Shown: positions 9,962-34,952 of the stretch, one piece after another
How positions within the stretch are numbered: position 1 is the stretch's first letter
How the letters are laid out: the number at the start of each line of letters is the position of its first letter
Assembly: GCA_024654565.1 (NCBI GenBank)
Contig: JANLHM010000006.1
Location: forward strand, 64,694 to 128,693
Origin: Nanobdellota archaeon
GTDB lineage: Archaea; Nanobdellota; Nanobdellia; Pacearchaeales; GW2011-AR1
Reading direction: 5' to 3'
Length of the DNA: 64,000 nucleotides
Translations under genes and position numbers: made by a program
The notes under the pieces: generated by a model
What the model saw: the letters and a program-made list of their open reading frames with translations, nothing else
Databases searched by the model: none
Told to the model about the DNA's origin: nothing

Positions 9962-10078
9962 AATTTGGCAGAGTTTTTAAATTTTATGTTCTTAGTCATT
10001 TCACAGTGATTACTCTTTTTTGGAATGGTTTTTAGTTTGATAAACAAATTTTATAAATCCGTTTCGTTTTGATTTTTT

Positions 10079-10972: not shown

Positions 10973-11014
10973 AATGTTGGAGGATTCTATTTTATTTATA
11001 AAATTTATCCCCCA

Positions 11015-12219: not shown

Positions 12220-12453
12220 ATTGATTAAACAATATAAATTTTTATAAACCTTATTGAGAATAAATTTTTATAGCAGAATATGTTCCGAATCTTGATGTTC
12301 CCAATTCCCCGCGTGATATTCTAAAATTTCCCCTCCATTTGCACTTGGAACATTTTTCGTTTTTTCAAAAGACCGGTCCAAATTTAAAACCAATTTTTCT
12401 CATATTAAATTTTGCCAGATAGATTTTAAAAACACTTGTTTTCTTCAAAATAT

Positions 12454-19048: not shown

Positions 19049-19195
19049 GATTATTTTTAAAATTAATTCTTTTTAACCAAATTCTTTTTATGTCTGAATT
19101 TTCTAATGGGGAAGTAACCCCCTCAAGAGCAACTAATAACTTTTGTTTTCTTACTTAGTGTAATAAATACATATACTAAACCGCCACAATGTTTA

Positions 19196-19218
19196 AATAG
19201 TGTAATTAGTACACTATT
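19196..19218. promoter_or_regulatory. Perfect palindrome (9-bp arms, 5-nt spacer) overlapping the pncB operon promoter; candidate NrtR operator
   Basis: AATAGTGTA-ATTAG-TACACTATT lies 29-51 nt upstream of the pncB ATG. An imperfect related site TTAGTGTAATAAATACATATACTAA is at 19155..19179. Both share TAGTGTAAT and are followed by TATACTAA. Confidence 0.45.
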
Positions 19219-19246
19219 ATACTAAATGTAAAAAATACACAAAGAA

Positions 19247-20533
19247 ATGACAGAAAAAATAAACAAAAACGTAGGGAATGAAAGTCCAGGGAAGGAGAAT
19301 CCAATAATTTCTTCACTGTTGGACACAGACTTTTACAAGCTGACAATGGGACAGTTTGTATATAATAGGTATCCGGATGTGATAGTCAAGTATTCCTTTA
19401 AGAATAGAACTTCGAGTGTAAACCTTGCAGAGGTTGTTGATGAGAATGATTTAAGGAGAGAATTGAACAACATAAGAAGTTTAAGTTTGACTAATGATGA
19501 AGTAAATTACCTTAAGAGTTTAAAGTATGAAGGTAAACACCTTTTCAAAGAAGATTATATTGATTTTTTAAAAAATATAGAACTCCCTACTTATGAATTG
19601 TCAAAAGAAAAGGGTTTTCTAAAACTTGAATTTACTGGGCCTTGGTCAAAATCAATTTATTGGGAGACTCTTGCTCTTTCAGTCATAAATGAACTTTATT
19701 ACAAAGAGAAATTGAGAGGAATGAATTTGGAAGAGGTTGAAGCGGTCTATTCCGAAGGCAAAAAAAGGCTTAAAAAGAAAGTTAGGACTTTAAGGGAAAA
19801 CCCCGAGATAAAATTCATAGAATTTGGGACAAGAAGAAGATTTAGTTCTGGATGGCAATCAAAGGTCGTTTCATATCTAAAGGAGCATGTTCCGTCTCAA
19901 ATTACTGGTACTTCAAACGTTTACCTTGCAATGAAACATGGGCTAGATCCAAAAGGAACAATGGCACATGAAACTTTTATGGTTATGTCTGGAATAATGC
20001 ATGACAATGATGAAAGTATAAGAAATTCACATAACCAAGTTCTAAAAGAGTGGTGGGAAGAATATGGGGAAAGTTTGTCTATTGCCTTGACAGACACATA
20101 TGGTTCAGAATTTTTCTTTAAAGACATTACTCCAGAACAAGCAAGAAATTGGAAAGGATTAAGGCAGGACTCTGGAGACCCACGAGAATTTGCAAGACAC
20201 CAAATTGAATTTTATAACGGCCTCGGGATAGACCCAAAAGAAAAACTTTTTGTTCCAAGTGATGGACTTGAAATTGAAAAAATGGTTTCTCTTCAAAAAG
20301 AATACGGGAACAAAATAAACATTGTTTCCGGGTGGGGAACAAACCTCACTAATGACATGGGACTTAAACCACTTTCCTTAGTAATAAAAGCAGTTGAAGC
20401 GAATGGACACGGAACTGTTAAACTAAGTGACAACTCTGCAAAGTCGACGGGGGAACCTAGTGACATTTCAAGGTTCATTCAAATATTCGAATATCCCCCT
20501 TTTAAATACAAAACAGAGGAGTGTAAATACTAA
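19247..20533 (+). CDS. pncB: Nicotinate phosphoribosyltransferase
   Basis: LLDTDFYKLTMGQ, FGTRRRFS, GTSNVYLAMKHGLDPKGTMAHE and LRQDSGDP closely parallel E. coli PncB motifs. Confidence 0.9.
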   Translation: MTEKINKNVGNESPGKENPIISSLLDTDFYKLTMGQFVYNRYPDVIVKYSFKNRTSSVNLAEVVDENDLRRELNNIRSLSLTNDEVNYLKSLKYEGKHLFKEDYIDFLKNIELPTYELSKEKGFLKLEFTGPWSKSIYWETLALSVINELYYKEKLRGMNLEEVEAVYSEGKKRLKKKVRTLRENPEIKFIEFGTRRRFSSGWQSKVVSYLKEHVPSQITGTSNVYLAMKHGLDPKGTMAHETFMVMSGIMHDNDESIRNSHNQVLKEWWEEYGESLSIALTDTYGSEFFFKDITPEQARNWKGLRQDSGDPREFARHQIEFYNGLGIDPKEKLFVPSDGLEIEKMVSLQKEYGNKINIVSGWGTNLTNDMGLKPLSLVIKAVEANGHGTVKLSDNSAKSTGEPSDISRFIQIFEYPPFKYKTEECKY

Positions 20534-21372
20534 TGGAAAAATTTTATGTTGGGGTTAATATTGATTGGAGTAAGTCTTTTGTTGACCCGAATGGAAGTTT
20601 TTATTGTGGAACAACTGGGGACCAAAAGTCTTTAGTATCAAAACTTATGCCCCACTTAGACTTGGTCGTTAATACTACAGATTTTCATTCAATAACCAGT
20701 AAAGAGTTCTCAATTAATGGGGGGATGTGGCCTCTTCACAATATTGCCGAGTTTAGAGATATAAATCCTCTTGACTATAACCTTGATAAAGATTCAACTA
20801 TTAGTCCTGAACAAACCCAAGTTATCGAAAACGCCATAAATAAAACAAAAACAGGAATTGTTATTCCAAGGCATGTTTATTTCCAAGGTGGAGATGAACC
20901 TTCTTTTACCCCAGATTTGGTTGAAAGAGCGTTCCAGCAGAAAATAATCACACCTGAAGAATTCATGAATGAAGATTATACATATATTATTTCTCCAAAA
21001 ATGCATTTTGATGCAACTACAATTATTAGTCCATACTTTCTTCCAAAAACAAATATTGAAAAAATTCCAAATGAAGAGTTTACAATTTTTGATTTAATAG
21101 ACAAAAAATACGGAAAAAGTAAGGAAATTGTTTACATCGGAACAGGAGTTGTTGATAACATTTGTAGGCATTATACCACAACGGGGTTAAGGCAAAAGTA
21201 TGGGAGAAGAGTCGTAAACATTTTTGGGGCAACAACAGAACTCTATGGTGTTGGTCTTGGATTTGAAAACAAAAACCAAGTAAGGGAGTCTTGTGAAAGA
21301 ATTCAAAAAGACATCGGTATAGAACACAAAACTTTGGAGGAAATGCTCTTTGAGATAAATGTTAGAAAATGA
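20533..21372 (+). CDS. Isochorismatase-family hydrolase, nicotinamidase-like
   Basis: VGVNIDWSKSFVDPNGSF (compare VDmQnDF), TTDFHS, and GTGVVDNICRHYTTTGL (compare GvatdyCV with catalytic Cys). Context next to pncB. Confidence 0.55.
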   Translation: MEKFYVGVNIDWSKSFVDPNGSFYCGTTGDQKSLVSKLMPHLDLVVNTTDFHSITSKEFSINGGMWPLHNIAEFRDINPLDYNLDKDSTISPEQTQVIENAINKTKTGIVIPRHVYFQGGDEPSFTPDLVERAFQQKIITPEEFMNEDYTYIISPKMHFDATTIISPYFLPKTNIEKIPNEEFTIFDLIDKKYGKSKEIVYIGTGVVDNICRHYTTTGLRQKYGRRVVNIFGATTELYGVGLGFENKNQVRESCERIQKDIGIEHKTLEEMLFEINVRK

Positions 21373-23084
21373 AAATTGCTATAGTTCAGATGAACTCAAT
21401 CACTGGAGACCTCTTTGGGAACACTAAGAAAATAAAAGATGGAATAAGGCGAGCTAAGGAAAATGGTGCACACCTTGTTGTTTTTCCTGAAATGGCTTTG
21501 ACTGGTTATTGCATTTCAGACTTAATTGAAGATGAGAGTTTCATTGAAAAAAATAAGAGCCTTATATATGAAATTTCTAAAGAAAGTGAAGGAATTGTTG
21601 CAATCATTGGTTTTATTGATTACGACCATACCAAAAAGAATGATGACGGAAGAGTAAGAAAATACAATTCAGCTGCAGTTATTCAAAACGGAATTGTTTT
21701 AGGAGTTGTAAACAAATCTCTTCTACCTAATTACAGATATTTTGACGAAAAAAGATATTTTAATCCTTCAGAAAAAAGGGACCCAGTCGAAATAATTGTT
21801 GAGGGTAAAAAGGTAAAACTTGGTGTTTCAATATGTGAAGACTTGTGGGATGAGTCTTACTTAGTGAAACCAATAAAAGAGTTAGCAGAAAAAGGAGCAG
21901 AAATTATAATTAACATAAATGCTTCTCCATTTTACCACGGGAAATCTATTGAAAGGGACAAGATTATCAAAAAGCAGATTGAAAACATAGGTCTTCCATT
22001 TGTTTATGTTAACACTGTTGGATCAGCTGACAATGGAAAAAATATCATCCCTTTTGACGGAGAGTCATCAGTTTTTAATAAGAATGGGGAACTGACACTT
22101 CTTGGTAAGAAGTTTGATGAAGAAATTTTGTTTGTTGACTTAGAAAACAAAAATGAAACAAAAATAAAAAGAGAAAAATATTCCTCTGAAAAAGAAATTT
22201 TTGAAGCTCTTGTTATGAGCCTTAAAGATTATGCAAATCAAATTGGATTCAAAAAAGCAATTTTACCTCTTTCAGGGGGGATAGATTCTGCACTTGGACT
22301 TGTTATATGTGTTGAGGCCCTTGGAAGTGGAAACGTTATTGCATATAACCTTCCTTCAGAATTTAATACTGACACAACAAAAAACATTGCAAAGAAACTC
22401 TCGAGAAACTTGAATGTTGAGTACAGAACAATTCCTGTGCAAGAAATTGATGAAAAAATAAGAGAAGTTTATGAAAAAAATGTTTCCAAAATAAAAAGAG
22501 GAGTTACAAAGGAGAATCTTCATGCAAGAATAAGGGGATTACTTATGATGCTTGAATCGAATGACAATGGTTCTCTTCTTGTTTCAAATGGAAATAAAAC
22601 TGAAATTGCTCTGGGTTATTCGACTTTATATGGAGATATGTGTGGGGGAATTTCAGTTATAGGGGACTTATCTAAGTCCCAAGTGTACAAAATTTCAAAA
22701 TATGTTAATGAAAGGTTTGAAAAAGAAATAATTCCTGAAGAAATATTCAAAATAAAACCTTCGGCTGAACTGAGTTTAGGTCAGTATGACCCTTTTGACT
22801 ACCCAATTGTCTCTCCCTTAGTTGATTTATTTGTAGAAGAAAGAAATTCAATTAATGACATAATTGAAAAGTTTAAAGATAAAAATCTTGGAGAAAGTTT
22901 TCCTCGAGAAGTTTATTCAAATTATTCTTTAGATGAATTTAAGTCTTTGGTTTACAGTATTTATGGACTTATTAAAAAATCAGTTTATAAGAGACTTCAG
23001 GGACCTCCAATTATAAGTGTTACTAAGAGGTCATTTGGTTTTGACCTTCGTGAAACTTTAGTAAACTACTGGGAGGGAAGATGA
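21369..23084 (+). CDS. nadE: Glutamine-dependent NAD+ synthetase (nitrilase domain + PP-loop synthetase domain)
   Basis: The N-terminal CN-hydrolase domain has FPEMALTGY and ICEDLW. The PP-loop LSGGIDSA is present. 571 aa. Confidence 0.9.
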   Translation: MKIAIVQMNSITGDLFGNTKKIKDGIRRAKENGAHLVVFPEMALTGYCISDLIEDESFIEKNKSLIYEISKESEGIVAIIGFIDYDHTKKNDDGRVRKYNSAAVIQNGIVLGVVNKSLLPNYRYFDEKRYFNPSEKRDPVEIIVEGKKVKLGVSICEDLWDESYLVKPIKELAEKGAEIIININASPFYHGKSIERDKIIKKQIENIGLPFVYVNTVGSADNGKNIIPFDGESSVFNKNGELTLLGKKFDEEILFVDLENKNETKIKREKYSSEKEIFEALVMSLKDYANQIGFKKAILPLSGGIDSALGLVICVEALGSGNVIAYNLPSEFNTDTTKNIAKKLSRNLNVEYRTIPVQEIDEKIREVYEKNVSKIKRGVTKENLHARIRGLLMMLESNDNGSLLVSNGNKTEIALGYSTLYGDMCGGISVIGDLSKSQVYKISKYVNERFEKEIIPEEIFKIKPSAELSLGQYDPFDYPIVSPLVDLFVEERNSINDIIEKFKDKNLGESFPREVYSNYSLDEFKSLVYSIYGLIKKSVYKRLQGPPIISVTKRSFGFDLRETLVNYWEGR

Positions 23085-24196
23085 GACTTATAAAAAAAGA
23101 CGGGAAGTTTGACTTGTCTGAAATTGAAGTAAGTCTTTTGTATGACTACAATTATCCAAAAGAACATGTAGAAAAATTAATGCCAAAACTTGAAGAGATA
23201 GACTTTTTAAGAAAAGAAAAAAATGCAGTTGTCCTCGCTCACCTGTACCAGATTCCTCCAATTCAACTTATTTCCGACTTTAGGGGGGATTCACTAAAAC
23301 TTGCAGAGTATGCAAAAAACATTGGCGACAAAAGTCTTATTGTTTCTTCGACTGTCAAATTCATGGCCGAGATGGCTAAAATTTTAAGTCCCTCAAAAAA
23401 AGTTGTTGTTCCTTCACTTGAAGCAAGCTGTTCAATTGCTGAAGGAATAAATGGGGAAACTATTAAAAGAATAAAAGAAAGTTTTCCAGACTCTTCAATT
23501 GTTTCTTACATAAATACTTACATTGATTCAAAGGCAGAAGTTGATTCAGTTTGCACTTCTGCAAATGCACGACAAGTTTTAGAAAATATTGGAGGAAATT
23601 CGGTGATACTTCTTCCGGATTACTTTTTCTCAAAGAATGTAATCAAAAGTATAAAAAATCCCGGAAGGAAATACTTTGCATACAAAGGAATTTCTAATGG
23701 GAACATAATAATTGAGGATGTATTCAATGAAAAGGAAATTGTTGTTAGCGGTGAAGGAATTAATTTACCTCTTTTGAAAAAAGGAACTTGTATTGTTCAT
23801 GAGGACTTCACACCTGAAGAAGTTATTTACTTAAGGAAGAAGGATAAAATTGATGTAGTTATGTCTCACCCTGAAGTTTCTCCGGAAGTTGCAAGAGTTT
23901 CAGACTTTGTTGGTGGAACAAGTAACATGATAAACTTTGTTAAAGAAAATGGTGAAAAATTAAAGTATTTGGTAATCACAGAATGTGATTTAACTGGTCC
24001 ATTAAGAGAAACTTATAGGAAAACTAATTTTTACACTCCTTGCAAACTTTGTCCTTATATGAAGAAAAATAGTGTTGACTCTTTAATTGATTCACTAAAA
24101 AAAGAAGTTTATGAAATAAAAATTGAGGAAACTCTTCTTAAGAAGGGAAGGAGGTCCTTAGACAAAATGTTTGAACTAACAGGAGGTTTAAAATGA
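23081..24196 (+). CDS. nadA: Quinolinate synthase
   Basis: VLAHLYQIPPIQLISDFRGDSLKLA, VKFMAEMAKIL and ASCSIAEG. SYINTYIDSKAEVDSVCTSANA, and C-terminal CKLCPYMKKN, follow the NadA pattern including the cluster cysteines. Confidence 0.85.
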   Translation: MRLIKKDGKFDLSEIEVSLLYDYNYPKEHVEKLMPKLEEIDFLRKEKNAVVLAHLYQIPPIQLISDFRGDSLKLAEYAKNIGDKSLIVSSTVKFMAEMAKILSPSKKVVVPSLEASCSIAEGINGETIKRIKESFPDSSIVSYINTYIDSKAEVDSVCTSANARQVLENIGGNSVILLPDYFFSKNVIKSIKNPGRKYFAYKGISNGNIIIEDVFNEKEIVVSGEGINLPLLKKGTCIVHEDFTPEEVIYLRKKDKIDVVMSHPEVSPEVARVSDFVGGTSNMINFVKENGEKLKYLVITECDLTGPLRETYRKTNFYTPCKLCPYMKKNSVDSLIDSLKKEVYEIKIEETLLKKGRRSLDKMFELTGGLK

Positions 24197-25068
24197 AATT
24201 TAAGACTTTTAGTATTCTTGCTGGAAGTGAAGCGTGTAACGCTAGGTGTCCATTTTGTGTTTCAAAGATGACTCCTCCAAATGGGGTTGACTTAAAGGAG
24301 CCAGAAGTCAACTGGAGAAATTTTAGGGTTGCAGCAAACTTGGCAAAACATTCAGATGTTGACACCGCAATGATCACAAGTAAGGGTGAACCACTACTCT
24401 TTCCAAAACAAATTACAAAATATATGGAAGTATTAAATGAATTTAATTTTCCTTTTATTGAGCTTCAAACAAATGCAATCCCTTTATATGAAAAAAAAGA
24501 AAAGTATGACCCGTTTGTTAAAAATTGGTTTAACAAAGGGTTAACAACTGTTGCAATTTCAATAGTTCACTTTGACCCCGAGAAAAATAGAGAAATATAC
24601 TCACCCAATAAAAAAAGTTACATAGATTTATCGGACACCGTAAAATACCTACATGACACTGGGCTTTCTGTAAGACTTGCAACAATTGGTCTTGATGGAT
24701 ATATAGACTCAGGAAGTAAACTTGAAAGATTAATAGAGTTTTCAAAAGAAAACAAAGTTGAACAACTGACTCTACGACCTGTAAACAAATCTGAAGAGGG
24801 TAAAGACCTTGACATTTACAAATGGGTCTTGGAAAATTATCTGAAAAAAGAGCAGTTAGATGACATAAACAGTTATGTTTATAACAACGGAACAAAACTC
24901 TTAGAACTTCCTCATGGTGCAGTTGTTTATGACATCCGTTCTCAAAACTTTTGTCTTACAAACTCTTTAACAAGAGATTCAAATCCAGATAAAGGGAGGC
25001 AATTGATCTTTTTTCCTGATGGGCACATAAGGTATGACTGGGAAAAGGAAGGAGCAATTTTACTATGA
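24193..25068 (+). CDS. Radical SAM enzyme, function unknown
   Basis: CNARCPFC (CxxxCxxC) near the N-terminus and a GEPLL SAM-binding motif. ATGA-coupled to nadA. Confidence 0.8.
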   Translation: MKFKTFSILAGSEACNARCPFCVSKMTPPNGVDLKEPEVNWRNFRVAANLAKHSDVDTAMITSKGEPLLFPKQITKYMEVLNEFNFPFIELQTNAIPLYEKKEKYDPFVKNWFNKGLTTVAISIVHFDPEKNREIYSPNKKSYIDLSDTVKYLHDTGLSVRLATIGLDGYIDSGSKLERLIEFSKENKVEQLTLRPVNKSEEGKDLDIYKWVLENYLKKEQLDDINSYVYNNGTKLLELPHGAVVYDIRSQNFCLTNSLTRDSNPDKGRQLIFFPDGHIRYDWEKEGAILL

Positions 25069-26111
25069 ACAACGAACTTAAACTTCATGCATTGAAAGCG
25101 GTTTATACTTATTTTTTTCCCGAAGTAAGAGAAATTTCAAAACTTCCTTCAAAAATTGATTCAAGTCTTTTTTTAACAACAACTAGTGTCGAAGAAGCTA
25201 AAAAAGGAATTGATAAACTTGGATTTGATAAGTCACTAACCCTTCCCCAAACTTCTGAAGGTAAAATTGATCTTGACCTCCTACATGAACCAGTAATAAA
25301 GAGAATTTCAAAAATTTATTCAGAAGTACTTAGAGGGATTTCAGAATTTAAACACAGTTATTTTACTTCTGGTTCAAGTGAAGGAATTTTTCATGTTCTT
25401 TCAGAATTAAAGGCTCGTGGTGTAAATGAAATCTACACTCTTTCAGGAGAGTATGAGGGTTACAAGGAATATGGGAATGCCATTGGAATAAAAACAACTG
25501 AAATAAACCTTGACAAAACAAAATTAAATTCACTTGATAAAAAAGTTTGGTTTATTTCAAACCCTTCTGCAAGGGACGGAAACACCATTTCAAATGAAGT
25601 GATAAACGAAATATGTGACAATGCAAGTGAAGTCTTTTTAGATTTTGCATATGCCGGGTTAACAAAAGAAAATATGTTTGACATTAGTCACAAAAATATA
25701 AAGGGTTTCTTTTTGTCTTTTAGTAAACCCTATGGTTTTTTTAGATTTAGGGCGGGTTTTGCATTTTCAAAAGAGGAATTAAAATCTCTTTATGGAAATA
25801 AATGGTTTAAAGACATCGGAAGGGTTTTAACTTCATTAAAACTTGCTGAAGACATTGGTCCAAATTTCTTTCACAAAAAGTATGGAAAACTGCAAAGTGA
25901 AATTGTTAACAGTATAAACAAGAAATATAGCCTTAAACTAAAGAAAAGTGATTCATTACTTATTGCCTACATGAGTTCCTTAGATTTTATGACTCTTTCT
26001 CCAGAGGGCAAAAATTTAGTTAGTCCATATAAAAGGGGGGAGAGCTATAGGTTTTGCCTCACTCCCTATTTTGAGAAAATTGAAAAGGGAGAGCCTTTAT
26101 TTCTAGAATGA
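25065..26111 (+). CDS. PLP-dependent aminotransferase class I/II-fold enzyme (HisC/CobD-like)
   Basis: ISNPSARDGNTIS (compare NPnNPTG), LDFAYAG (compare DEAY) and LSFSKPYGFFRFRAGFAFS (compare SFSK.fGlaGlR.Gy with the PLP lysine). Confidence 0.6.
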   Translation: MNNELKLHALKAVYTYFFPEVREISKLPSKIDSSLFLTTTSVEEAKKGIDKLGFDKSLTLPQTSEGKIDLDLLHEPVIKRISKIYSEVLRGISEFKHSYFTSGSSEGIFHVLSELKARGVNEIYTLSGEYEGYKEYGNAIGIKTTEINLDKTKLNSLDKKVWFISNPSARDGNTISNEVINEICDNASEVFLDFAYAGLTKENMFDISHKNIKGFFLSFSKPYGFFRFRAGFAFSKEELKSLYGNKWFKDIGRVLTSLKLAEDIGPNFFHKKYGKLQSEIVNSINKKYSLKLKKSDSLLIAYMSSLDFMTLSPEGKNLVSPYKRGESYRFCLTPYFEKIEKGEPLFLE

Positions 26112-26689
26112 AAATTGCACTTTTTGGGGGAAGTTTTAATCCCATTCACAATCTCCATATAAAAATTGCAAATGAAATTATTAGTCGCAACCTTGTAGAC
26201 GAAGTTTGGTTTATTCCATGTGGAAGTCACCCTTTTCTAAAAAGCCTTATTAACGGGAAAGACAGAATTAAAATGATAAAACTTGCAATAAAAGGAAACC
26301 CCAAGTTTAAGGTTCTTGACATTGAGATAAAGGATGTTAGTGTAGATTCAAAAAATAAAAGCTATACTTCTGAAACTATTAAAAAAATAAAAAAAAGTTT
26401 TCCAAATGATGAATTTTATTTTGTTATTGGGTCAGACTTGGTTGGAAACTTGGCCAAGTGGAATGACTTTTCTTATTTGTCAGAGAACGTTGAGTTTATT
26501 GTTGTACAGAGGGGCGAGTTTAATTTATATAACCTTCAAAAAATAAAAGTAAAGTCTTTTATTGAAATGAAAGAAACCCTTTCTTCGACATATGTTCGTT
26601 CGAAAGCAGTTTTAGGTGAGTCTATTTATGAACTTGTTCCGGAGCCCGTTTCAAAATACATAAAAATGGAGGGGTTGTATCAAAACTAA
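26108..26689 (+). CDS. nadD: Nicotinate-nucleotide adenylyltransferase (bacterial NadD type)
   Basis: FGGSFNPIHNLH (GxFxPxHxxH) and C-terminal SSTYVRS (ISSTxxR). Confidence 0.85.
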   Translation: MKIALFGGSFNPIHNLHIKIANEIISRNLVDEVWFIPCGSHPFLKSLINGKDRIKMIKLAIKGNPKFKVLDIEIKDVSVDSKNKSYTSETIKKIKKSFPNDEFYFVIGSDLVGNLAKWNDFSYLSENVEFIVVQRGEFNLYNLQKIKVKSFIEMKETLSSTYVRSKAVLGESIYELVPEPVSKYIKMEGLYQN

Positions 26690-26690
26690 A

Positions 26691-27230
26691 ATGGGGGAAG
26701 TAAGAAAAGGTGATGAAGTGGTTTATCGGGGTCACTTAACCCTTGTAAAGAGACCTTATTTGGGAAAGGATTTTGATGTTGTTGTCTCTAAAGATGCTAC
26801 AATTATGCTCTACATTGATGAAGAGGACAACACTTACTTAACAAAACAGTATAGGCCTGCAATGGAAGAAGAAGTTGTTGCTCTTCCAGCTGAAACTCTT
26901 GACAAAGAGGGATTAAGTCCCCTTGAAGTTATGGTTGAGGGTCTAGAAGAAGAGTGCGGAATAAGAATAAACCCTTCACAGGTTAAATACATCGGAAAGA
27001 TTGATTCAACTGACGGGCATGACACAGAAAAAGTTCATTTGTTTATTGCTTATGGCGAAGGCAATCATGTTTCCCAAAGACTTGAAGACTCTGAAAAGAT
27101 TGAAGTGGTAAAAATGTCATTTGAAGAGTTATATCAAAAAGTTATGAAAAATGAGATTTTTGGAGCTAAAACTTCTTACCTAGTTATGTATGAAAAATTA
27201 AGGAGGCTTGAAGAAAATGGGAAAAATTAA
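26691..27230 (+). CDS. Nudix-fold protein, ADP-ribose pyrophosphatase-like with non-canonical Nudix box
   Basis: LPAETLDKEGLSPLEVMVEGLEEECGI aligns with NudF PAGKLEKGEEPEYTALRELEEETGY, but the RE pair is replaced by EG. Confidence 0.5.
   Translation: MGEVRKGDEVVYRGHLTLVKRPYLGKDFDVVVSKDATIMLYIDEEDNTYLTKQYRPAMEEEVVALPAETLDKEGLSPLEVMVEGLEEECGIRINPSQVKYIGKIDSTDGHDTEKVHLFIAYGEGNHVSQRLEDSEKIEVVKMSFEELYQKVMKNEIFGAKTSYLVMYEKLRRLEENGKN
27201..27206 (+). promoter_or_regulatory. Shine-Dalgarno-like AGGAGG, 10 nt upstream of the pnuC ATG
   Basis: aggaggcttgaagaaaATG. Similar GGAGG elements precede the starts at 24193 and 25065. Confidence 0.45.
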
Positions 27231-27909
27231 AGATTACCTTAAAGATTGGAATTGGTTTGAGAGAATATGGCTTTTAACATTCACCATTGTAAATATATAT
27301 CTTTTTTTTGCATGGCAAGATACAATTGTTGGACTTACCGCTTCAATAACGGGAATGATTTGTGTCGTTCTAACTGCAAAAGCAAAAATAAGTAGTTTTT
27401 ATTTTGGTTTTGTAAACATATTAACTTACTCTTATGTTGCTTATCAAAGTTCATATTACGGGGATGTTATGCTCAATATGCTTTATTTTCTTCCTATGAC
27501 TTTTGTAGGAATATATTTTTGGAAGAAGAATCAGAAATTAGGAAAGACTGGAGAAGTAAAGGTGAGAAGCCTTGACTGGAGAAAGAGATTTTTGTGGTTC
27601 TCCCTTTCAATTGTTGCTCTGGTTTTATATGGGGGGATATTAACTTTGATTAAAGGGACTCTTCCTTTTGTTGACTCTGCAACAACGGTTTTTTCAGTCA
27701 TTGCAACTATAATGCTTAATAAGAGGTTGACCGAGCAGTGGTTTTATTGGATACTTGTTGACATTCTTTCAATTGTTATGTGGGTCTATATCTTTTTTAC
27801 GCAGGGCTCAGACATTAGTATACTTGTTATGTGGTCGGCTTTCCTTGTAAATGCTGTTTATGGATTATATAACTGGAAAAAGATGGAGAAGAAACAAAAT
27901 GGAAAATGA
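27217..27909 (+). CDS. pnuC: Nicotinamide riboside transporter PnuC
   Basis: Multi-TM protein with WFERIWLLTF...TAKAKISSFYFGFVN...GDVMLNMLYF...FWKK, typical of PnuC. The ATG at 27217 is preferred over the TTG at 27208. Confidence 0.8.
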   Translation: MGKIKDYLKDWNWFERIWLLTFTIVNIYLFFAWQDTIVGLTASITGMICVVLTAKAKISSFYFGFVNILTYSYVAYQSSYYGDVMLNMLYFLPMTFVGIYFWKKNQKLGKTGEVKVRSLDWRKRFLWFSLSIVALVLYGGILTLIKGTLPFVDSATTVFSVIATIMLNKRLTEQWFYWILVDILSIVMWVYIFFTQGSDISILVMWSAFLVNAVYGLYNWKKMEKKQNGK

Positions 27910-28939
27910 ATTAAAAGTTTCAAAAAAGAAAACTGTTGGTTTTATAGGAGGCAAATTTTTACCATTTCACCTTGGTCATGCGTATGTGATTTTATCTGCA
28001 TCAAATTATGTTGATACCCTTTATGTTGTACTTTCCTCTTCAAAAAAAAGAGATAGGGAAATATGTGAAAGGGATGGAATAAAGTATATTCCTGCCAAAG
28101 TCAGGCTTTCCTGGCTTGGAGAATTTCTAAACAACCTTGAAAACATAAAAATAATACATGTAGAGGATGATTATTGGGATAGTGATTACAATTGGGAAGA
28201 AGGTGCTAGAATGATAAAAGAAGCAATAGGAGAACCAATTGATTACGTTTTTAGTTCTGAAACAAGTTATAATGAACTTTTTAAAAAAAATTATCCTTCT
28301 GCAAAGCACATAATAATTGATGACAAAAGAAAGACTGTGGCAATTTCTGCTACAGATATGAGAAAAAATCTTTATTCTAACTGGGATAAAATCCCAAACT
28401 GTGTAAAATCTTATTTTACCAAGAAAGTTGCGATAGTGGGGACAGAAAGTTGTGGTAAGACGACCCTTGCAAAAAAACTTGCAAAATTTTACAATACAAA
28501 TTATGTTCATGAAGTTGGCCGGAATTATTGTATAAATTATTCAAATCAACTAACTCCAGAGATGTTCAATTTGATTGCAATGGAGAACTATCTTCTTCAG
28601 ATTGAGAAAGCTAAAGAAAGTAATAAGGTTCTTTTTATTGACAGTGAAGCGACAATAACACAATATTACCTTGATTTGTATTTTAATGGAAACAGTTCAG
28701 AATTAATTGATAAAATAGCAAGTCTTCAAAAGTATGACCTTGTTCTTTTTCTTGAACCAGATGTAGAATGGGTTCCTGATGGTTTGAGATTCTCGGGAAA
28801 AGATGAAGAAAGAAAGGAAAACAATAAAAAATTGAAAAAAATGTTTATTAATAGGGGAATTTCTTTTGTGACTATTGGCGGAGATTATTCTGAGAGATTT
28901 AATAAATCAAGGGAGATGGTTGATTTATTGTTTAAATAA
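27899..28939 (+). CDS. nadR: NadR-like bifunctional NMN adenylyltransferase / ribosylnicotinamide kinase (no HTH domain)
   Basis: GFIGGKFLPFHLGHAYVI (nucleotidyltransferase HxGH) and VAIVGTESCGKTTLAKKLA (P-loop kinase). Internal ATG chosen (MENELK). Confidence 0.8.
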   Translation: MENELKVSKKKTVGFIGGKFLPFHLGHAYVILSASNYVDTLYVVLSSSKKRDREICERDGIKYIPAKVRLSWLGEFLNNLENIKIIHVEDDYWDSDYNWEEGARMIKEAIGEPIDYVFSSETSYNELFKKNYPSAKHIIIDDKRKTVAISATDMRKNLYSNWDKIPNCVKSYFTKKVAIVGTESCGKTTLAKKLAKFYNTNYVHEVGRNYCINYSNQLTPEMFNLIAMENYLLQIEKAKESNKVLFIDSEATITQYYLDLYFNGNSSELIDKIASLQKYDLVLFLEPDVEWVPDGLRFSGKDEERKENNKKLKKMFINRGISFVTIGGDYSERFNKSREMVDLLFK

Positions 28940-28940
28940 A

Positions 28941-29714
28941 ATGTTCAAAAAAATAACTCTTTTACTGAAGAAAGACTGCGAAATTGAAGCAAAAGCTTTT
29001 GAAGAAGTTCATAAGACTTTTATAGATTCCATTGTAAAAATTATTTCATTTGATAACTTAAAAAAAGAAGACCTTTTGGATTCTGACCTTGTTATTACAA
29101 TTGGGGGAGACGGGACTTTTGTAAAGGCAGGAAATTTGATAGAGGATTCTTTAATAATCGGGATAAATTCTAACCCCCAAACTAGTGAAGGCGCTTTGAC
29201 TGAAATAAATATAGATGAACTTCAAAAACTTAGTGAAATTTCAAAAGGAAATTTTGAAATTCTAAAGAGAGACCGTGCAAGAGTTAGGCTTAATGGGATG
29301 GTTATTGATGAACATGCAATAAATGAAGTTTATGTTGGAGCCTTTTCTCAGTTTCACAGTTCAAGGTATATAATAAAATTTAATGATAATGAAGAGGAAC
29401 ACAGAAGTTCTGGGGTTATTGTTTCAACAGCGACTGGTTCACCTGCATGGTTTTATTCGGCGGGTGGAGAGAAGTTTAATCATTCAGAAGAGAAACTTTC
29501 CTTTATTGTTAGGGAACCATATTATGGGGAAAGAATTTTTGTTCCTAAAATTTTAAAGGGAGATTTGCACCGAGGAGAAAGGTTAATTTTAAAGTCAAAG
29601 AGAGATTCTGGGGGGATACTCGCAATAAATGAGGCAACTTATCCATTTAATGAAGGGGATATTGTTGAAATTGAACTTTCAGAGAAACCTCTCAAAGTTG
29701 TGAAATTGAAATGA
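28941..29714 (+). CDS. nadK: NAD kinase
   Basis: DLVITIGGDGTF (GGDG), NEVYV and STATGSPAW. Internal ATG chosen (MFKKITLL). Confidence 0.85.
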   Translation: MFKKITLLLKKDCEIEAKAFEEVHKTFIDSIVKIISFDNLKKEDLLDSDLVITIGGDGTFVKAGNLIEDSLIIGINSNPQTSEGALTEINIDELQKLSEISKGNFEILKRDRARVRLNGMVIDEHAINEVYVGAFSQFHSSRYIIKFNDNEEEHRSSGVIVSTATGSPAWFYSAGGEKFNHSEEKLSFIVREPYYGERIFVPKILKGDLHRGERLILKSKRDSGGILAINEATYPFNEGDIVEIELSEKPLKVVKLK

Positions 29715-30151
29715 AATTAGTAAGATGTCCTGAAATTTATGAAGGAAATAAAAAATCATTGTTTCTTGCGGGAGGAATAAGTAATTGTCCTGATTGGCAG
29801 AAAGAACTAATTAATCTTCTTAGAGAAACCGATTTGGTTTTATTGGACCCGAGAAGAGAAAAGTTTGAGAGGAATAACAAAGAAATGGAAGAAGAACAAA
29901 TAAAATGGGAATTTGAACACTTGAATAAATCAGAATCTTTTTCTTTCTGGTTTCCAAAAGAAACCGTGTGCCCGATTACCCTTTATGAATTGGGTAAGGA
30001 AAGTGCCTCGAATAAACGAATATTTGTGGGAGTTCATCCCGAATATTCTAGGAGAAGGGATGTTGAAATACAAACTAAATTAATAAGACCTGAAGTAAAA
30101 ATTGTTTATTCTTTGGGGGAACTGGCAAAGGAAATAAAGAAAGGATTATAA
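29711..30151 (+). CDS. Nucleoside 2-deoxyribosyltransferase-like (PF15891-like) protein
   Basis: SLFLAGGISNCPDWQ, LLDPRR, QIKWEFEHL and PITLYELG fit the pattern of this family. Confidence 0.55.
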   Translation: MKLVRCPEIYEGNKKSLFLAGGISNCPDWQKELINLLRETDLVLLDPRREKFERNNKEMEEEQIKWEFEHLNKSESFSFWFPKETVCPITLYELGKESASNKRIFVGVHPEYSRRRDVEIQTKLIRPEVKIVYSLGELAKEIKKGL

Positions 30152-30182: not shown

Positions 30183-30965
30183 ATGGATTTTGGCAAAAAA
30201 TTAAATTTTTCAAAGGAAAGTTGGAACTATTTTGTTGGAGAAATTTGGAAAAAGATTTTTGAAGAAATTAATTTGAATAAGGATGGGGTTTTAATCGAAG
30301 TTGCTCCAGGAAGTGCAAACAAAATTGGTCATGGATTAAAAAATTATGGTTTTGAAGGGAAACTTTTTTTAGTAGAACCAAATTTAAAGTCTTTAACTAC
30401 AATCACAAAAGAGTATAGAATTATTTTACACGCAGATATAATCCCCATTTATGCCAGTTTAAAAGAATCTATCCCCCTTATTCCTTTTGGGACTGATGCA
30501 GTAGTCTCAAATCACCCTTTGGATGACATGATAATCTCTAAATCACTTTCTAGGAATTCTTTTGATGACTTTTTTGATAATCATTATGACGGGGCTTCTT
30601 TTAATAAAACCAGAAATTTTTGGGAAAGGCTTGAAAACAATCCAAATTTGGAAAAATATAAAGAAGAAGTTTTAGATGACTGGAGTGAATTTATTAATCT
30701 TACAAATCCAAAATTTTTAGCAATCTCTCAATATGAAAGTTTTTTCTTCAAATCACATGGATTTTCTTCTCCCGATAAATATGCTTTTCAGGTTTTTGAA
30801 AATTTAATTTTTAAATATGGCCCTTCCAACAACTATTTTTTGGAAGATTATGTTGAAGATGTGGGAAAATGGCTTATCTCAAAAAATCCTGCCAAAGAAA
30901 GTTTTAAATATTCATGTCCATCCAAAAATACAGATGTGAAAACTTCGGATTTATTGCTGGAGTGA
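30183..30965 (+). CDS. Rossmann-fold (methyltransferase-like) protein of unknown function
   Basis: VLIEVAPGSANKIG, LFLVEPN and VVSNHPLDD resemble class I MTase motifs I, II and IV, but are not diagnostic. Confidence 0.35.
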   Translation: MDFGKKLNFSKESWNYFVGEIWKKIFEEINLNKDGVLIEVAPGSANKIGHGLKNYGFEGKLFLVEPNLKSLTTITKEYRIILHADIIPIYASLKESIPLIPFGTDAVVSNHPLDDMIISKSLSRNSFDDFFDNHYDGASFNKTRNFWERLENNPNLEKYKEEVLDDWSEFINLTNPKFLAISQYESFFFKSHGFSSPDKYAFQVFENLIFKYGPSNNYFLEDYVEDVGKWLISKNPAKESFKYSCPSKNTDVKTSDLLLE

Positions 30966-32039: not shown

Positions 32040-33542
32040 TTAGTTAAATTTTGGTTTTTCACCTGCTAAAATTATATTGGTGTCAGGGTAATCTAAAACT
32101 AAAAGTTCACCTTTTTCTTTTTTGTATATCTTTGCCTTTCCCTTATACATTTTTTCTATGATGTATTCGCTTTTGAAGGACTTGGAACCCGGAACAATTT
32201 CAAAACCTACTTTTTTTATCTCATCTTTCCACTTTGATAAACTCCAAAATCCAAATTCTTCGTTCATCTCACTTTTCCAGTTGTCAGTGTAATTCATTTT
32301 ACTTATAAATTCATAGGCGTCTTGTATTGAGAGTTCAATAAAAGTTTTTCCTAAAAATTTTACCTCTTCAAATTCAATTTTTCTTCTTTTAAAGTCTTTT
32401 ACAAATTTGTAAAATTTTGCCTTTGTTGACAATATGTGAACGTCGCCCGAATCTTTTCCATCCTTCTCATTTAATTCAAGAAAAACTTTTTCTTTTGGGT
32501 TTTCGGGTCCGACCACATCTCTAATTACAATTCTCCCTCCTGGTAGGAGCTCTTTAAAAGTGTTTTTTATAACTTTTTTTAAAGAGTCTTCACTTATGTA
32601 AGAATATATTTCATGTAGGACTGAGGAATATATGAATGTGTTCACCGTGTTCTCTTTAAAGTTTTGGTCAAGAATGTTTTTTCTGTAAAAATAAACAAAT
32701 GGGTTTGGGTATTCCTGGAGTTTACAATATTCATAAAACTTTCTTGTTGCTTCAATTCCAATGATGTCAGACTCTTCAAAGTTTTTTGATAGGTGCCAGA
32801 TTAGAGCTCCCGTCCCACATCCTGCATCCACAATTTTTCCTGGGACAACAAAAGGAGCGATGTCATTAAACTTAAACTGGATATTTTGGTCCATCCCTCG
32901 CGCGTAACTGTTGTAATCTCTTGTTTCTGTCAAATTTGCATCTTCATTTATTAATGAATCTTTAAAAACCTCGATTATGGAGTCTCCAAGATTGTATTCA
33001 AGGTAAATTTCCTCAGTTGACTTTGAAGTGTATTTTTTCCAATTTTTGTCAGTTCTCCATTTTTTCCCTGCTTTCACAAGGAGGTTTAATATTTCATATG
33101 GTCTTAAAGTAGAATATTTTTCTTCCTTTTCTCCAGGGATTAATTCATTTGTTATAACTTGGAAGCCCATTTTTTTGAACATCTTTATAACTGACGGTGT
33201 GGAAGAGGCAATTAGAGTGTTTTTGGGTGTTAACTTTTCTCCTCCAAGGTATTCAATTCTGTGTATTATATATTCCGCAAATTTTTTAGTTTCTTTGACG
33301 TCAGAAATTGGATAAATTTTTGTTTCGCAGTTTATGTTCTTTGAAAACTTTTCTATTGCAAGTGCTCTTAAATATAGAGGTACGGGGTTTCTTCTTGTGT
33401 TTTCATGGTCGCTTGAAGTTATTGCAAAGATTATCCTCTCAACCTTTTTACCCTCAATTCCCTTCTTAACCAAATTTTTTATATAATCATGCAGAAATTC
33501 CGAAAGTAAATGGTGTCTTCCCGGTATAAGGACATTTAGCAT
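32040..33542 (-). CDS. Fusion protein: NadM-like nucleotidyltransferase-fold N-domain + class I SAM methyltransferase C-domain
   Basis: The N-domain (IPGRHHLLSEFLH...IIFAITSSDHENTRRNPVPLYLRALAI...IYPISDV...MFKKMGFQVI) parallels archaeal NMNAT (GRFQPFHKGH...IGIGSAQ.S.T..NPFTA.ER..M...iPI.Di...lF...Gy.V). The HxGH motif is not conserved. The C-domain has VDAGCGTGAL. Confidence 0.5.
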   Translation of the reverse strand: MLNVLIPGRHHLLSEFLHDYIKNLVKKGIEGKKVERIIFAITSSDHENTRRNPVPLYLRALAIEKFSKNINCETKIYPISDVKETKKFAEYIIHRIEYLGGEKLTPKNTLIASSTPSVIKMFKKMGFQVITNELIPGEKEEKYSTLRPYEILNLLVKAGKKWRTDKNWKKYTSKSTEEIYLEYNLGDSIIEVFKDSLINEDANLTETRDYNSYARGMDQNIQFKFNDIAPFVVPGKIVDAGCGTGALIWHLSKNFEESDIIGIEATRKFYEYCKLQEYPNPFVYFYRKNILDQNFKENTVNTFIYSSVLHEIYSYISEDSLKKVIKNTFKELLPGGRIVIRDVVGPENPKEKVFLELNEKDGKDSGDVHILSTKAKFYKFVKDFKRRKIEFEEVKFLGKTFIELSIQDAYEFISKMNYTDNWKSEMNEEFGFWSLSKWKDEIKKVGFEIVPGSKSFKSEYIIEKMYKGKAKIYKKEKGELLVLDYPDTNIILAGEKPKFN

Positions 33543-33592
33543 TACTAGTCGAAATTATAAATCTTTAAATATCTTATTGTATTAAAGACATT

Positions 33593-34267
33593 ATGGAAAA
33601 AGAAAGCATACATGATTATGAAAAGCCTTCAGTTACGGCTGACATCGTTATTTTTACTATTGAAAAAGAAAAGCTAAAGGTTCTTTTGGTGAAAAGAGAT
33701 CTGAATCCTTACAAAGGAAAGTGGGCTCTTCCTGGGGGTTTTGTTCGGATAAATGAATCACTTGATGACGCTGCAAAAAGAGAGTTAGAAGAAGAAACAG
33801 GTGTGAAGGACGTTTACCTTGAACAGTTGTATAGTTTTGGTGAACCAAAAAGGGACCCTCGTGGGAGAGTAATTACTGTTTCTTATATGGCCCTAGTTAA
33901 CTCAGAAAAAATTGCACTTCGTGCTTCAAGTGACGTTTCTGAAGCAAAGTGGTTTAACTTTTCTAAGGAAATGAACCTTGCATTTGATCATGATAAGATA
34001 CTAAATTATGCATTTCAGAGACTTAAATGGAAATTTGAATACACGACTGTTGCTTTTTCGCTTTTGCCAAAAAATTTTACTATTAGTCAAGTTCAGAAGA
34101 TTTACGAAGTTGTTTTTAATAAAAAATTTGACAAAAGGAATTTTAATAAAAAAATAATTTCACTCAATATTTTTAAAGAGGAAGGGGTAAACAAAAACGT
34201 TTCTTATCGTCCACCCATGATGTATTCTTTGAAAAAAAATATTGGGGACATTGTAAGTATAATTTAA
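33593..34267 (+). CDS. nrtR: NrtR-family Nudix-related transcriptional regulator
   Basis: Canonical Nudix box GGFVRINESLDDAAKRELEEETGV, followed by a C-terminal wHTH-like segment (FQRLKWKFEYTTVAFSLLPKNFTISQVQKIYEVVFNKKFDKRNFNKK) characteristic of NrtR. Sits at the edge of the NAD cluster. Confidence 0.7.
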   Translation: MEKESIHDYEKPSVTADIVIFTIEKEKLKVLLVKRDLNPYKGKWALPGGFVRINESLDDAAKRELEEETGVKDVYLEQLYSFGEPKRDPRGRVITVSYMALVNSEKIALRASSDVSEAKWFNFSKEMNLAFDHDKILNYAFQRLKWKFEYTTVAFSLLPKNFTISQVQKIYEVVFNKKFDKRNFNKKIISLNIFKEEGVNKNVSYRPPMMYSLKKNIGDIVSII

Positions 34268-34316: not shown

Positions 34317-34952
34317 ATGGTTGTGGCACAAGTTATTTTAAAAACAAAGCGTTTAATTTTAAGAAGCCCGAGGTTAAGTGATACCGACGACATCACCGAA
34401 GGAATTGGGAATTTTGAAGTCTGTAAAAATATGTCGGGCGTTCCTTATCCTTATAAAAAGAAAGATGCAAAAGAATGGTTAAATAAAGTCATCAAAAAGT
34501 CAAAGATGAAAGTACGTGAAAGTTATGTATTTATGATTGAACTTAAAAAAGAAAAGAAAGTAATTGGTTGCTTAGACTTGAATAAAATAAACTTAACAGA
34601 CCTCACTTGTCAAACTGGTTCATGGATAAACTTGAAGTATCACCAAAAAGGGTACATTACTGAAGCAAAAATCGCTGTAAATGAATTTGCATTTAACAAA
34701 TTAAAAATGAGAAAAATGGAGACTACCGTTTTTAGGATAAACAAAGCAAGTAATGCCACTCAAAAGTCAGTTGGTTACAGATATGAAGGTTGTAAAATTA
34801 AAAGTGTTGTTTCAAAGTCCACCGGGAAAATATATGACGTAAATATGTATGGCCTCTTAAAGGAAGACTGGAAAAAGCGCCTTCCAAAATTAAGGGCACA
34901 CCTCGAAAAAAAAATAAAGAAACTATCGATAAATAAGCTATCCGCAAATTGA
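34317..34952 (+). CDS. GNAT N-acetyltransferase (RimJ/RimL-like)
   Basis: LILRSPRLSD N-terminus and HQKGYITEA...FNKLKMRKMETTV, typical of the Acetyltransf_3 family. Confidence 0.65.
   Translation: MVVAQVILKTKRLILRSPRLSDTDDITEGIGNFEVCKNMSGVPYPYKKKDAKEWLNKVIKKSKMKVRESYVFMIELKKEKKVIGCLDLNKINLTDLTCQTGSWINLKYHQKGYITEAKIAVNEFAFNKLKMRKMETTVFRINKASNATQKSVGYRYEGCKIKSVVSKSTGKIYDVNMYGLLKEDWKKRLPKLRAHLEKKIKKLSINKLSAN

Follow-up and report, generated by a model that had tools for sequence, protein, structure and literature searches.

An NAD gene row with a radical SAM gene

This analysis concerns a stretch of 64,000 nucleotides (positions 64,694 to 128,693 of contig JANLHM010000006.1, assembly GCA_024654565.1; referred to as the window) from a Nanobdellota archaeon of the Pacearchaeales. 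Twelve genes, all on the forward strand, form one nicotinamide adenine dinucleotide (NAD) row in it: pncB, an open reading frame (ORF) of 279 amino acids (aa), nadE, nadA, a radical S-adenosylmethionine (SAM) gene, the gene of a pyridoxal 5'-phosphate (PLP) enzyme, nadD, a Nudix gene, pnuC, a nadR-like gene, nadK, and a gene resembling nucleoside 2-deoxyribosyltransferases (NDT-like). Our focus is on the radical SAM gene and its PLP partner. As described below, the radical SAM gene, with or without the PLP gene, is a conserved and laterally mobile member of NAD operons under predicted control of the regulator NrtR, independent of an adjacent nadA, and the module is very probably a true and newly recognized part of the NAD regulon.

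The window was scanned with Pfam, NCBIfam and PADLOC models and the bit scores were set against the model cut-offs. The quinolinate synthase gene nadA, of a "long" clade (23081..24196; Pfam NadA, 281.8 bits against a cut-off of 27), is followed by the radical SAM gene with its motif CNARCPFC (24193..25068; PF04055, 37.9 against 29.5), the gene of the fold-type I PLP enzyme with its motif SFSKPYG (25065..26111; PF00155, 31.9 against 19.7) and nadD, encoding the nicotinate mononucleotide (NaMN) adenylyltransferase (26108..26689; TIGR00482, 155.1 against 112.45). A previous reading of this DNA without database searches (the sequence-only reading) had described these four genes as coupled through ATGA motifs, which is borne out by the ORF positions and by the DNA itself: stop and start codons overlap in this way at nadE/nadA, nadA/radical SAM, radical SAM/PLP and PLP/nadD, and further at the 279-aa ORF/nadE and nadK/NDT-like junctions.

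The row extends beyond those four genes, from pncB (position 19247) to the NDT-like gene. Upstream, pncB encodes a nicotinate phosphoribosyltransferase (NAPRT; 19247..20533; TIGR01514, 352 bits against 269.55; NF003704, 444 against 379) and nadE a glutamine-dependent NAD synthetase with CN_hydrolase and NAD_synthase domains (21369..23084; NF010588, 499.5 against 479). The 279-aa ORF between them (20533..21372) had no match in Pfam, NCBIfam or PADLOC. It occupies the position that PncA holds in two related loci (L178 and L175), the slot being filled in relatives by a PncA of the isochorismatase family, and nicotinamidase-like Asp, DxH and Cys motifs can be recognized by eye, so it is possibly a divergent nicotinamidase. 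Downstream of nadD are the genes of a Nudix hydrolase similar to YffH/AdpP (26691..27230; TIGR00052, 39 bits, below the cut-off of 79.55), the nicotinamide riboside transporter PnuC (27208..27909; TIGR01528, 136.6 against 42.45), a NadR-like nicotinamide mononucleotide (NMN) adenylyltransferase/ribosylnicotinamide kinase without a helix-turn-helix domain (27851..28939; NF005988, 216.4 against 201), an NAD kinase-like protein (28875..29714; at most 67.7 bits with the NAD kinase models, under their cut-offs) and the NDT-like protein (29711..30151; PF15891, 66.9 against 30).

Distribution and gene context of the radical SAM family

In total, 1084 homologs of the radical SAM protein, 55-70% identical and nearly all of ~291 aa, were found in DPANN archaea and bacteria of the candidate phyla radiation (CPR). 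At the level of clusters (50% identity), 292 match with E<=1e-30. Within GTDB, 216 species, all represented by metagenome-assembled genomes (MAGs), carry a member of the family; these also include Melainabacteria/Obscuribacterales, Planctomycetota, Chloroflexota, Acidobacteriota, uncultured gut Bacilli, Mollicutes and Clostridia. The family appears to be undescribed, as we found no paper on it in the openly accessible literature, including the papers on NrtR, NiaR and NARP3.

The gene context was surveyed within 10 kb on either side of the radical SAM gene in the 80 best-scoring species loci out of the 216 species, with neighbors called by tblastn thresholds; here and below, loci (numbered with the prefix L) are the best-scoring subsets of larger match lists, and the MAG contigs are fragmentary. 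At least one class of NAD genes was found nearby in 60 of the 80 loci and at least three in 39, with none in the remaining 20. The most frequent neighbors were NADK (36 loci), PncB and NadD/NadM (35 each), NadE (33) and NrtR (31), followed by Nudix (26), PncA (25), the PLP enzyme (24) and NadA (14). Proximity to pncB, pncA, nadD or nadM, nadE, nadK and nrtR is seen in DPANN archaea, CPR bacteria, Melainabacteria, Planctomycetota and gut Firmicutes alike. Two contigs of the same length (16,066 bases) that bear the gene are distinct, and not a single contig with two radical SAM paralogs. For comparison, a metagenome scan with an alignment of long NadA, in which the matches listed were almost all canonical NadA, provided 80 canonical nadA loci (0.71 Mb) as controls; none of them has a homolog of the radical SAM or PLP protein.

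Gene orders at the radical SAM loci vary widely among phyla, and therefore the association with NAD genes does not stem from inherited synteny. Moreover, the neighboring NAD enzymes are non-orthologous: the NAPRTs are of three subtypes, either NadD or NadM is present, and NadE depends on NH3 in some loci and on glutamine in others. Since the partners differ in this way, the radical SAM enzyme must be connected to them via a metabolite and not via the maturation of one protein, and a maturase of a single cluster enzyme was rejected.

Relatives of the radical SAM protein, up to 53% identical, were also found at 106 IMG/VR loci, of which 80 (L179-L258) were surveyed; "viral" refers here to the IMG/VR classification. 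Many of the contigs are 100-460 kb long and have a phage-like look, with strings of small ORFs on the same strand, and some, with NrtR or LPXTG/CHAP genes, resemble cellular DNA or other mobile elements. The neighbors were NadE-like proteins (20-22 loci), PncB (12-15), a 443-aa cytidylyltransferase-like protein (12), PncA (10) and NadD (6-9), with neither NadA nor the PLP enzyme in any locus and no NAD gene nearby in 52 of the 80. A compact cassette with the order PncA, radical SAM, PncB, NadD and NadE is present in L200 (~7400-11500), L201, L203 and L205, and those of L226 and L196 resemble it. At the protein level, the family was not found in searches of plasmid and GenBank phage collections.

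Predicted NrtR operators

A gene for NrtR, the Nudix-related transcriptional regulator (33593..34267, forward strand; NUDIX and NrtR_WHD domains; 69-73% identity to NrtR of L003 and L175), lies 3.4 kb downstream of the NAD row. Three sites of the NrtR operator type precede pncB on the forward strand (19156..19242), at 19156-19174, 19198-19216 and 19224-19242. The middle one, TAGTGTAATTAGTACACTA, is perfectly palindromic and lies 31 nt before pncB, and the two flanking copies are weaker. A fourth site, also a match to the palindrome, abuts the start of nrtR (33575..33593, forward strand). The window contains seven matches to the palindrome TAGTGTA-N5-TACACTA where 1.6 are expected, and the palindrome has the same GT-N7-AC core as the NrtR operators described previously (PMC2330246). 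Thus, with the nrtR gene and palindromic GT-N7-AC sites at 19156, 19198, 19224 and 33575, the window has the elements of an NrtR regulon.

The same palindrome precedes the NAD operons of related archaeal (DPANN) and bacterial (CPR) loci. Overall, 73 sites were counted in 1.29 Mb of radical SAM loci, and the control loci (0.71 Mb) gave one. The palindrome is at most 143 nt upstream of the radical SAM start in eight cases (L026, L039, L045, L047, L056, L064, L068 and L069), and in one of these, L047, it stands before the radical SAM gene although the census found no NAD gene nearby. As operators occur directly before it in Archaea and Bacteria, the radical SAM gene is a predicted direct target of NrtR in both domains, with binding deduced from the operator motif. 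The word "radical" does not occur in the paper describing NrtR regulons (PMC2330246). The suspicion of a non-canonical NAD step, voiced in the sequence-only reading, is well founded. The pair is firmly tied to NAD metabolism by its gene context and the NrtR operators.

The PLP partner

The PLP protein belongs to fold-type I, which was confirmed by structure comparison. In an alignment of 45 sequences, K221 (the Schiff base lysine), D193, Y196 and R229 are invariant, as are R324 and R329, and N166 is conserved in at least 90%. Its best structural match is the decarboxylase CobD (threonine-phosphate decarboxylase, 3fkd), followed by HisC. A NifS-like supplier of Fe-S clusters to NadA, as in B. 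subtilis, was considered and rejected, since the protein is HisC/CobD-like and not of class V.

The fold-I PLP gene was found in 24 of the 80 loci, always immediately after the radical SAM gene and usually overlapping it, and in a single case (P0256, 666 aa) the two are fused. That the pair is a real functional unit is supported by the gene overlaps as well as by the fusion. On the radical SAM tree the distribution of the PLP partner is patchy and the CPR branch is devoid of it; PLP-coupled and solo radical SAM genes are intermixed, and a division into separate subfamilies was discarded.

In seven loci of gut Firmicutes and Gastranaerophilales (L071, L072, L075, L087, L088, L092 and L093), the fold-I enzyme is replaced by a fold-III protein similar to ornithine/diaminopimelate (Orn/DAP) decarboxylases, whose gene overlaps the start of the radical SAM gene. 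The gene order in this cluster is fold-III PLP decarboxylase-like, radical SAM, NadE-like, and a NadD-like protein joined to a GNAT domain (587-705 aa). In four of the seven (L071, L072, L075 and L088) the cluster continues with a second radical SAM/SPASM gene and a ~620-aa protein of unknown kind, and a MobV relaxase gene is found just upstream of the cluster in L072, the sole locus in which an upstream gene was scanned. The cluster may be a mobile or secondary-metabolite variant.

The coupling of two unrelated PLP folds to the same radical SAM enzyme speaks for a module that handles an amino acid or an amine. A decarboxylation by the PLP partner is hinted at, CobD being a decarboxylase like the fold-III family as a whole; the fold-I and fold-III enzymes could, nonetheless, act at different steps.

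The radical SAM protein

The cluster motif C15-x3-C19-x2-C22 is invariant in the family and, together with the PF04055 score given above, places it in the radical SAM superfamily. The AlphaFold2 (AF2) model of the window protein (predicted local distance difference test, pLDDT, 93.2) has six beta/alpha units, and G65-E66, Q92-T93-N94, S123 and R161 align to the motifs of MoaA, as expected of a TIM barrel with SAM-binding motifs. The only other conserved cysteine is C254 (89% of sequences), which leaves the family without an auxiliary cluster, and eight basic positions (Arg/Lys) as well as many Asn/Gln and aromatic (Trp/Tyr) positions are conserved. The enzyme is predicted to cleave SAM reductively to the 5'-deoxyadenosyl radical. 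Four members (P0389 of 438 aa, P0242, P0244 and P0381) have extra N- or C-terminal regions; the N-terminus of P0389 is weakly cupin-like and the others show no recognizable domain.

A sequence search of the PDB returned no match, and a profile search retrieved MoaA (E 1.8e-11) over the N-terminal 187 residues. According to Foldseek, the closest structures are MoaA and the viperins, at a template modeling (TM) score of ~0.67 and 12-17% identity. ThiH, HydG and NosL were absent from the 50 best Foldseek matches listed, from the PDB profile matches and from the NCBIfam matches, and the precedent of ThiH, which the sequence-only reading had invoked for an imine-forming step, is therefore unsupported by the fold. 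On the other hand, the placement of the radical SAM/PLP pair outside the well-known families agrees with the NCBIfam, PDB and structure comparisons, in which scores with curated models are far under the cut-offs. Membership in MoaA or viperin was likewise rejected, given such scores and the lack of an auxiliary cluster.

NadA, the missing enzymes and the specificity of the NadA link

In the NadA of the window, C117, C237 and C324 align to Cys83, Cys170 and Cys256 of the P. horikoshii enzyme, and H54, Y56, S71, Y143, N145, S160, H263, E265 and T280 are conserved as well. The protein falls narrowly under the NCBIfam equivalog cut-offs (NF006878, 278.8 versus 294; TIGR00550, 235.5 versus 262.9), because of an insertion. 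The insertion, of ~40 aa after residue 189, and an N-terminal extension are features of the "long" clade, which comprises ~43 sequences of about 360-380 aa (P0391-P0432 and the window protein) and is confined to DPANN archaea and a single Omnitrophica MAG; from this clade to canonical NadA the similarity falls sharply, from 320 to 247 bits.

Pfam scans of ORFs of at least ~210 aa found no FAD_binding_2/NadB, QRPTase_C/NadC or NadX in the window, where about ten ORFs are without any family match; the absence of nadB/nadX and nadC from the 64 kb, as stated earlier, is thereby borne out. NadB, NadX and NadC were not found in the 80 related loci either. Every phosphoribosyltransferase at the radical SAM loci is of the NAPRT type, and several exceed equivalog cut-offs. 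Two candidates for NadC were rejected: a 383-aa "QRPTase_N" protein is grouped with the NAPRTs by NCBIfam, and the NDT-390 protein consists of an NDT-like and a Nudix-like domain. Hence, NadA occurs together with a NAPRT-type enzyme and without NadC (14 NadA-bearing loci, none with NadC), and this is a real and recurrent pathway hole, for which the radical SAM/PLP pair is not required in L175. The idea that a PncB-type phosphoribosyltransferase stands in for NadC fits this recurrence; the PncB of the window, however, scores as a canonical, nicotinate-using NAPRT.

The interpretation given in the sequence-only reading was partly supported. The nadA and radical SAM genes are coupled in the window, adjacent in L001/L056 and divergent in L044, and NadA is found within 10 kb in 14 of the 80 cellular loci, eight of which are among the 19 loci that form the CPR branch in the tree of radical SAM proteins. 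Yet the link is nonspecific: NadA is near in none of the 80 viral loci, the L178 operon lacks nadA, and the reverse holds for L175, where a long NadA lies in the same super-operon and the radical SAM and PLP genes are absent. In L176, long NadA occurs alone. The order in L178 is NAPRT, a 105-aa protein, PncA, NadE, radical SAM (69% identical to that of the window), PLP, Nudix, NADK, NDT, methyltransferase and NrtR, i.e., the window operon minus nadA. The pair is accordingly a module of the NAD regulon and not a dedicated accessory of NadA; imine supply to NadA is possible in the window and is not the general role of the family unless nadA is located elsewhere in the genomes.

In addition, a flavoenzyme similar to DAO/Mqo/LhgO (L-2-hydroxyglutarate-oxidase-like) is encoded in six radical SAM loci of CPR bacteria and DPANN archaea (L026, L042, L045, L047, L048 and L058), adjoining NadA in L026 (6354-7787) and L058 (789-2180), and could be a source of oxaloacetate, imine or dihydroxyacetone phosphate (DHAP) for NadA.

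Possible functions of the module

We tentatively propose, as a possible rather than a probable role, that the module carries out an oxygen-independent radical step on a substrate derived from an amine or amino acid, leading to a pyridine precursor that enters NAD through the NAPRT PncB. The 5'-deoxyadenosyl radical would take a hydrogen atom from this substrate, which would then be oxidized or rearranged without oxygen or flavin, and the resulting pyridine precursor would pass into NAD synthesis through a canonical NAPRT. Where present, the PLP enzyme would ready the substrate by decarboxylation or transamination, with aspartate as the prime candidate. Given the translational coupling to nadA, imine supply to NadA is the natural reading in the window, and the product would be iminoaspartate or 3-iminopropanoate derived from beta-alanine; the latter would fit a NAPRT without NadC better than iminoaspartate, and would yield nicotinate directly. 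The supply of a precursor is suggested because the PLP partners point to amino-acid chemistry, because the loci leave the NadB, NadX and NadC holes unfilled, because radical SAM enzymes in cofactor operons have, in the cases known to us, nearly always been biosynthetic, and because the replacement of a flavin adenine dinucleotide (FAD) amine oxidase by a radical SAM enzyme has precedent. This recent precedent is YhcC, which is reported to replace MnmC anaerobically (PMC13228596).

Several considerations weigh against a precursor-supplying role. NadA is absent from 66 of the 80 cellular loci, from all 80 viral loci and from the near-identical L178 operon, and if the role depended on NadA, the gene would have to lie in another part of the genome or be provided by the host. 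Without NadA, we know of no plausible route that leads from a common amino acid to nicotinate in one or two steps. MoaA and viperin, which have the most similar folds, use nucleoside triphosphates as substrates, and the conserved Arg/Lys, Asn/Gln and aromatic residues predicted to line the pocket would suit a nucleotide or sugar-phosphate substrate. NAD is so abundant that spending one SAM on each molecule made would be expensive, a PLP partner is missing from 70% of the loci, and the DAO/Mqo-like enzyme beside NadA in L026 and L058 could already feed NadA. That the module, with or without the PLP enzyme, defines an O2-, flavin- and NadC-free de novo route to nicotinate strikes us as quite improbable. 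In such a route the PLP enzyme would decarboxylate aspartate to beta-alanine, which the radical SAM enzyme would oxidize to 3-iminopropanoate (3-aminoacrylate). Nicotinate would then arise directly from the imine and DHAP through NadA, or else from ring formation by the radical SAM enzyme itself, and NAPRT would turn nicotinate into NaMN.

Three other explanations have to be weighed against precursor supply through PncB. In a specific version of the imine-supply idea of the sequence-only reading, the radical SAM enzyme would be an anaerobic surrogate of NadB/NadX that converts L-aspartate into iminoaspartate, with the PLP enzyme making or recycling aspartate and a NAPRT-type enzyme replacing NadC. 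The nadA/radical SAM overlap in the window, the adjacent and divergent arrangements (L001/L056 and L044), the frequency of NadA in the CPR branch (8 of 19 loci within 10 kb), the absence of NadB, NadX and NadC from every locus and the retention of all catalytic residues in the window NadA would all agree with it, as would some very small Saccharibacteria loci (NrtR, radical SAM, PncA, PncB, NDT, NadA, NadD) which offer no other candidate for the imine step. However, NadA is near in just 14 of the 80 cellular and none of the 80 viral loci, nadA and the pair occur without each other in L178 and L175, a DAO/Mqo-like enzyme co-occurs with the radical SAM gene and adjoins NadA in L026 and L058, the window PncB scores as an enzyme that takes nicotinate and not quinolinate, the decarboxylase-like fold-III partner of the Firmicutes is unsuited to aspartate supply, and the radical SAM fold is neither ThiH- nor HydG-like. 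We therefore regard this surrogate as unlikely, and a ThiH-like provision of imine to NadA is one possibility, not the best supported one.

The nucleotide-handling folds lead to a second explanation, in which the radical SAM enzyme abstracts hydrogen from the ribose of a pyridine nucleotide or ADP-ribose (NaMN, nicotinate adenine dinucleotide, NAD(P)(H) or ADP-ribose) in recycling, repair (of anomers or mis-reduced isomers) or modification, with the PLP enzyme, where present, transaminating a keto intermediate. Its closest structures and profiles, MoaA (TM 0.67; E 1.8e-11) and the viperins, would be in line with this, as would the eight basic and the many Asn, Gln, Trp and Tyr positions, and Cys254 (89%) could donate hydrogen. 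It is also favored by contexts without a nearby PncB, namely the triads of radical SAM, NadE and nucleotidyltransferase and the Obscuribacterales order NadR, NadD, NADK, radical SAM. Radical SAM enzymes are known to work together with PLP aminotransferases on sugars or nucleosides (BtrN/BtrS, DesII/DesI, BlsE/BlsH and PolH(NikJ)/NikK), and BlsE is structural match 19 of the radical SAM model. Still, we can name no physiological product of this kind for which a minimal genome would have use in a housekeeping NAD operon, the clusters look like the sole NAD route of their hosts, so that the bulk product stays ordinary NAD, enzymes like HisC/CobD and Orn/DAP decarboxylase normally use amino acids, and likeness in fold at 12-17% identity tells little about the substrate; on balance, action on a nucleotide seems to us fairly unlikely. 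A role outside NAD chemistry altogether, either as the maturase of one cluster protein or as a passenger of a laterally transferred NAD cassette, would explain the patchiness and lateral spread of the family (55-70% identity between Archaea and Bacteria, the MobV relaxase, the many IMG/VR contigs) and the loci without NAD genes nearby (20 of 80 species and 52 of 80 viral loci). It is nevertheless very improbable, considering the predicted NrtR operators that immediately precede the radical SAM gene at eight loci of both domains, an association with NAD that persists across unrelated gene orders and phyla, the non-orthologous partners (three NAPRT subtypes, NadD/NadM, NH3-/glutamine-dependent NadE) and the very strong sequence conservation.

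CPR bacteria and DPANN archaea are thought to depend on scavenged niacin, and to our knowledge the pathways of NAD synthesis and salvage count as completely mapped, with new enzymes being rare. The module is carried by the organisms about whose cofactor supply the least is understood, namely CPR/DPANN symbionts with genomes of ~1 Mb, Melainabacteria and uncultured gut Firmicutes. If the module supplies a precursor, supposed auxotrophs would make their own niacin by an unfamiliar anaerobic chemistry, and a complete route to nicotinate would give NAD autonomy to CPR bacteria, DPANN archaea and huge phages. Action on pyridine nucleotides would instead mean a new step of recycling, repair or modification. 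Either reading would alter metabolic reconstructions of these symbionts.

Other genes of the window

The NDT-like gene is followed by a 260-aa protein without family match (30183-30965), whose 3' end overlaps the predicted start of glyceraldehyde-3-phosphate dehydrogenase (30914); homologs of this protein close the radical SAM cluster of gut Bacilli (L072 and L075). A class I methyltransferase of ~500 aa (32040-33542, reverse strand) is convergent to the NAD row, and a methyltransferase of this size holds the same place, between the NAD genes and nrtR, in the DPANN loci L029, L067 and L178; in L019, L021 and L044 the place is filled by a 307-aa methyltransferase of a separate cluster. After nrtR there is a GNAT gene (Acetyltransf_3; 34317-34952), and a similar one in L175 (9486-10004) overlaps the start of the L175 nadA. 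A second radical SAM protein (12436-13848; Radical_SAM and Radical_SAM_C domains, 470 aa) bears no relation to the NAD-linked family. Two genes that may be mobile or have to do with toxins encode a Fic/DOC family protein (35060-36049) and a KilA-N domain protein (61442-62275), and the window also encodes an archaea-type threonyl-tRNA synthetase editing domain and replication factor C.

Comparison with known systems

Of the de novo pathway NadB/NadX-NadA-NadC, the window has NadA; aspartate oxidase or dehydrogenase and quinolinate phosphoribosyltransferase were found neither in the 64 kb nor in the 80 related loci. As for the two proteins of the module, the PLP enzyme has the fold-I architecture of HisC and CobD, with Lys221, Asp193, Tyr196, Asn166 and Arg229, but is only 10-17% identical to them (TM 0.5-0.62), stays far below the equivalog cut-offs (TIGR01141, 36.6 versus 276.55; TIGR01140, 25.1 versus 290.55) and has conserved motifs of its own, YFFPEVR, GEYEGY and RFCLTPY. 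The radical SAM protein has in common with ThiH, HydG and NosL only the superfamily. MoaA matches it best, both in the profile search (E 1.8e-11) and in structure (TM 0.67), and the two proteins have CxxRCxxC, GGEP-like and TNG motifs as well as a partial TIM barrel followed by a C-terminal sheet in common; the radical SAM protein differs in that identity is 17%, TIGR02666 gives 38.3 against a cut-off of 284.05, the C-terminal cysteines for the second, GTP-binding [4Fe-4S] cluster of MoaA are lacking, and the radical SAM loci have no molybdenum cofactor gene context. Viperin and pVip are similar in size and fold (TM 0.65-0.68), with weak NF038283 and PADLOC pVip matches, yet these reach 34.5 bits versus 180 and 30-32 bits, respectively, at 12-15% identity, and the radical SAM protein sits in housekeeping NAD operons under NrtR and not in defense islands.

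The cassettes on virus-classified contigs resemble NARP1-3 in being NAD-synthesis cassettes on phage or virus-classified DNA. In the accessible parts of the published accounts, NARP1 consists of Adps and Namat, NARP2 leads from nicotinamide to NAD via NMN, and NARP3 consists of PnuC and NadR, whereas the cassettes found here are of the Preiss-Handler type (PncA, PncB, NadD, NadE) and contain a radical SAM enzyme, neither of which is part of NARP1-3 as described there. They would add a candidate fourth type of phage NAD cassette to the NAD-depletion arms race.

The closest regulatory parallel is offered by the NrtR regulons (Rodionov et al. 2008, PMC2330246), with which the operons described here have in common the regulator made of a Nudix and a winged helix-turn-helix domain, the GT-N7-AC palindromes and the targets pncAB, nadD, nadE and nadM. 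In contrast to the published regulons, those predicted here also occur in Archaea (DPANN) and CPR bacteria, extending NrtR and its operator motif, as predicted sites, to the archaeal domain, and they include the radical SAM and PLP enzymes as additional members.

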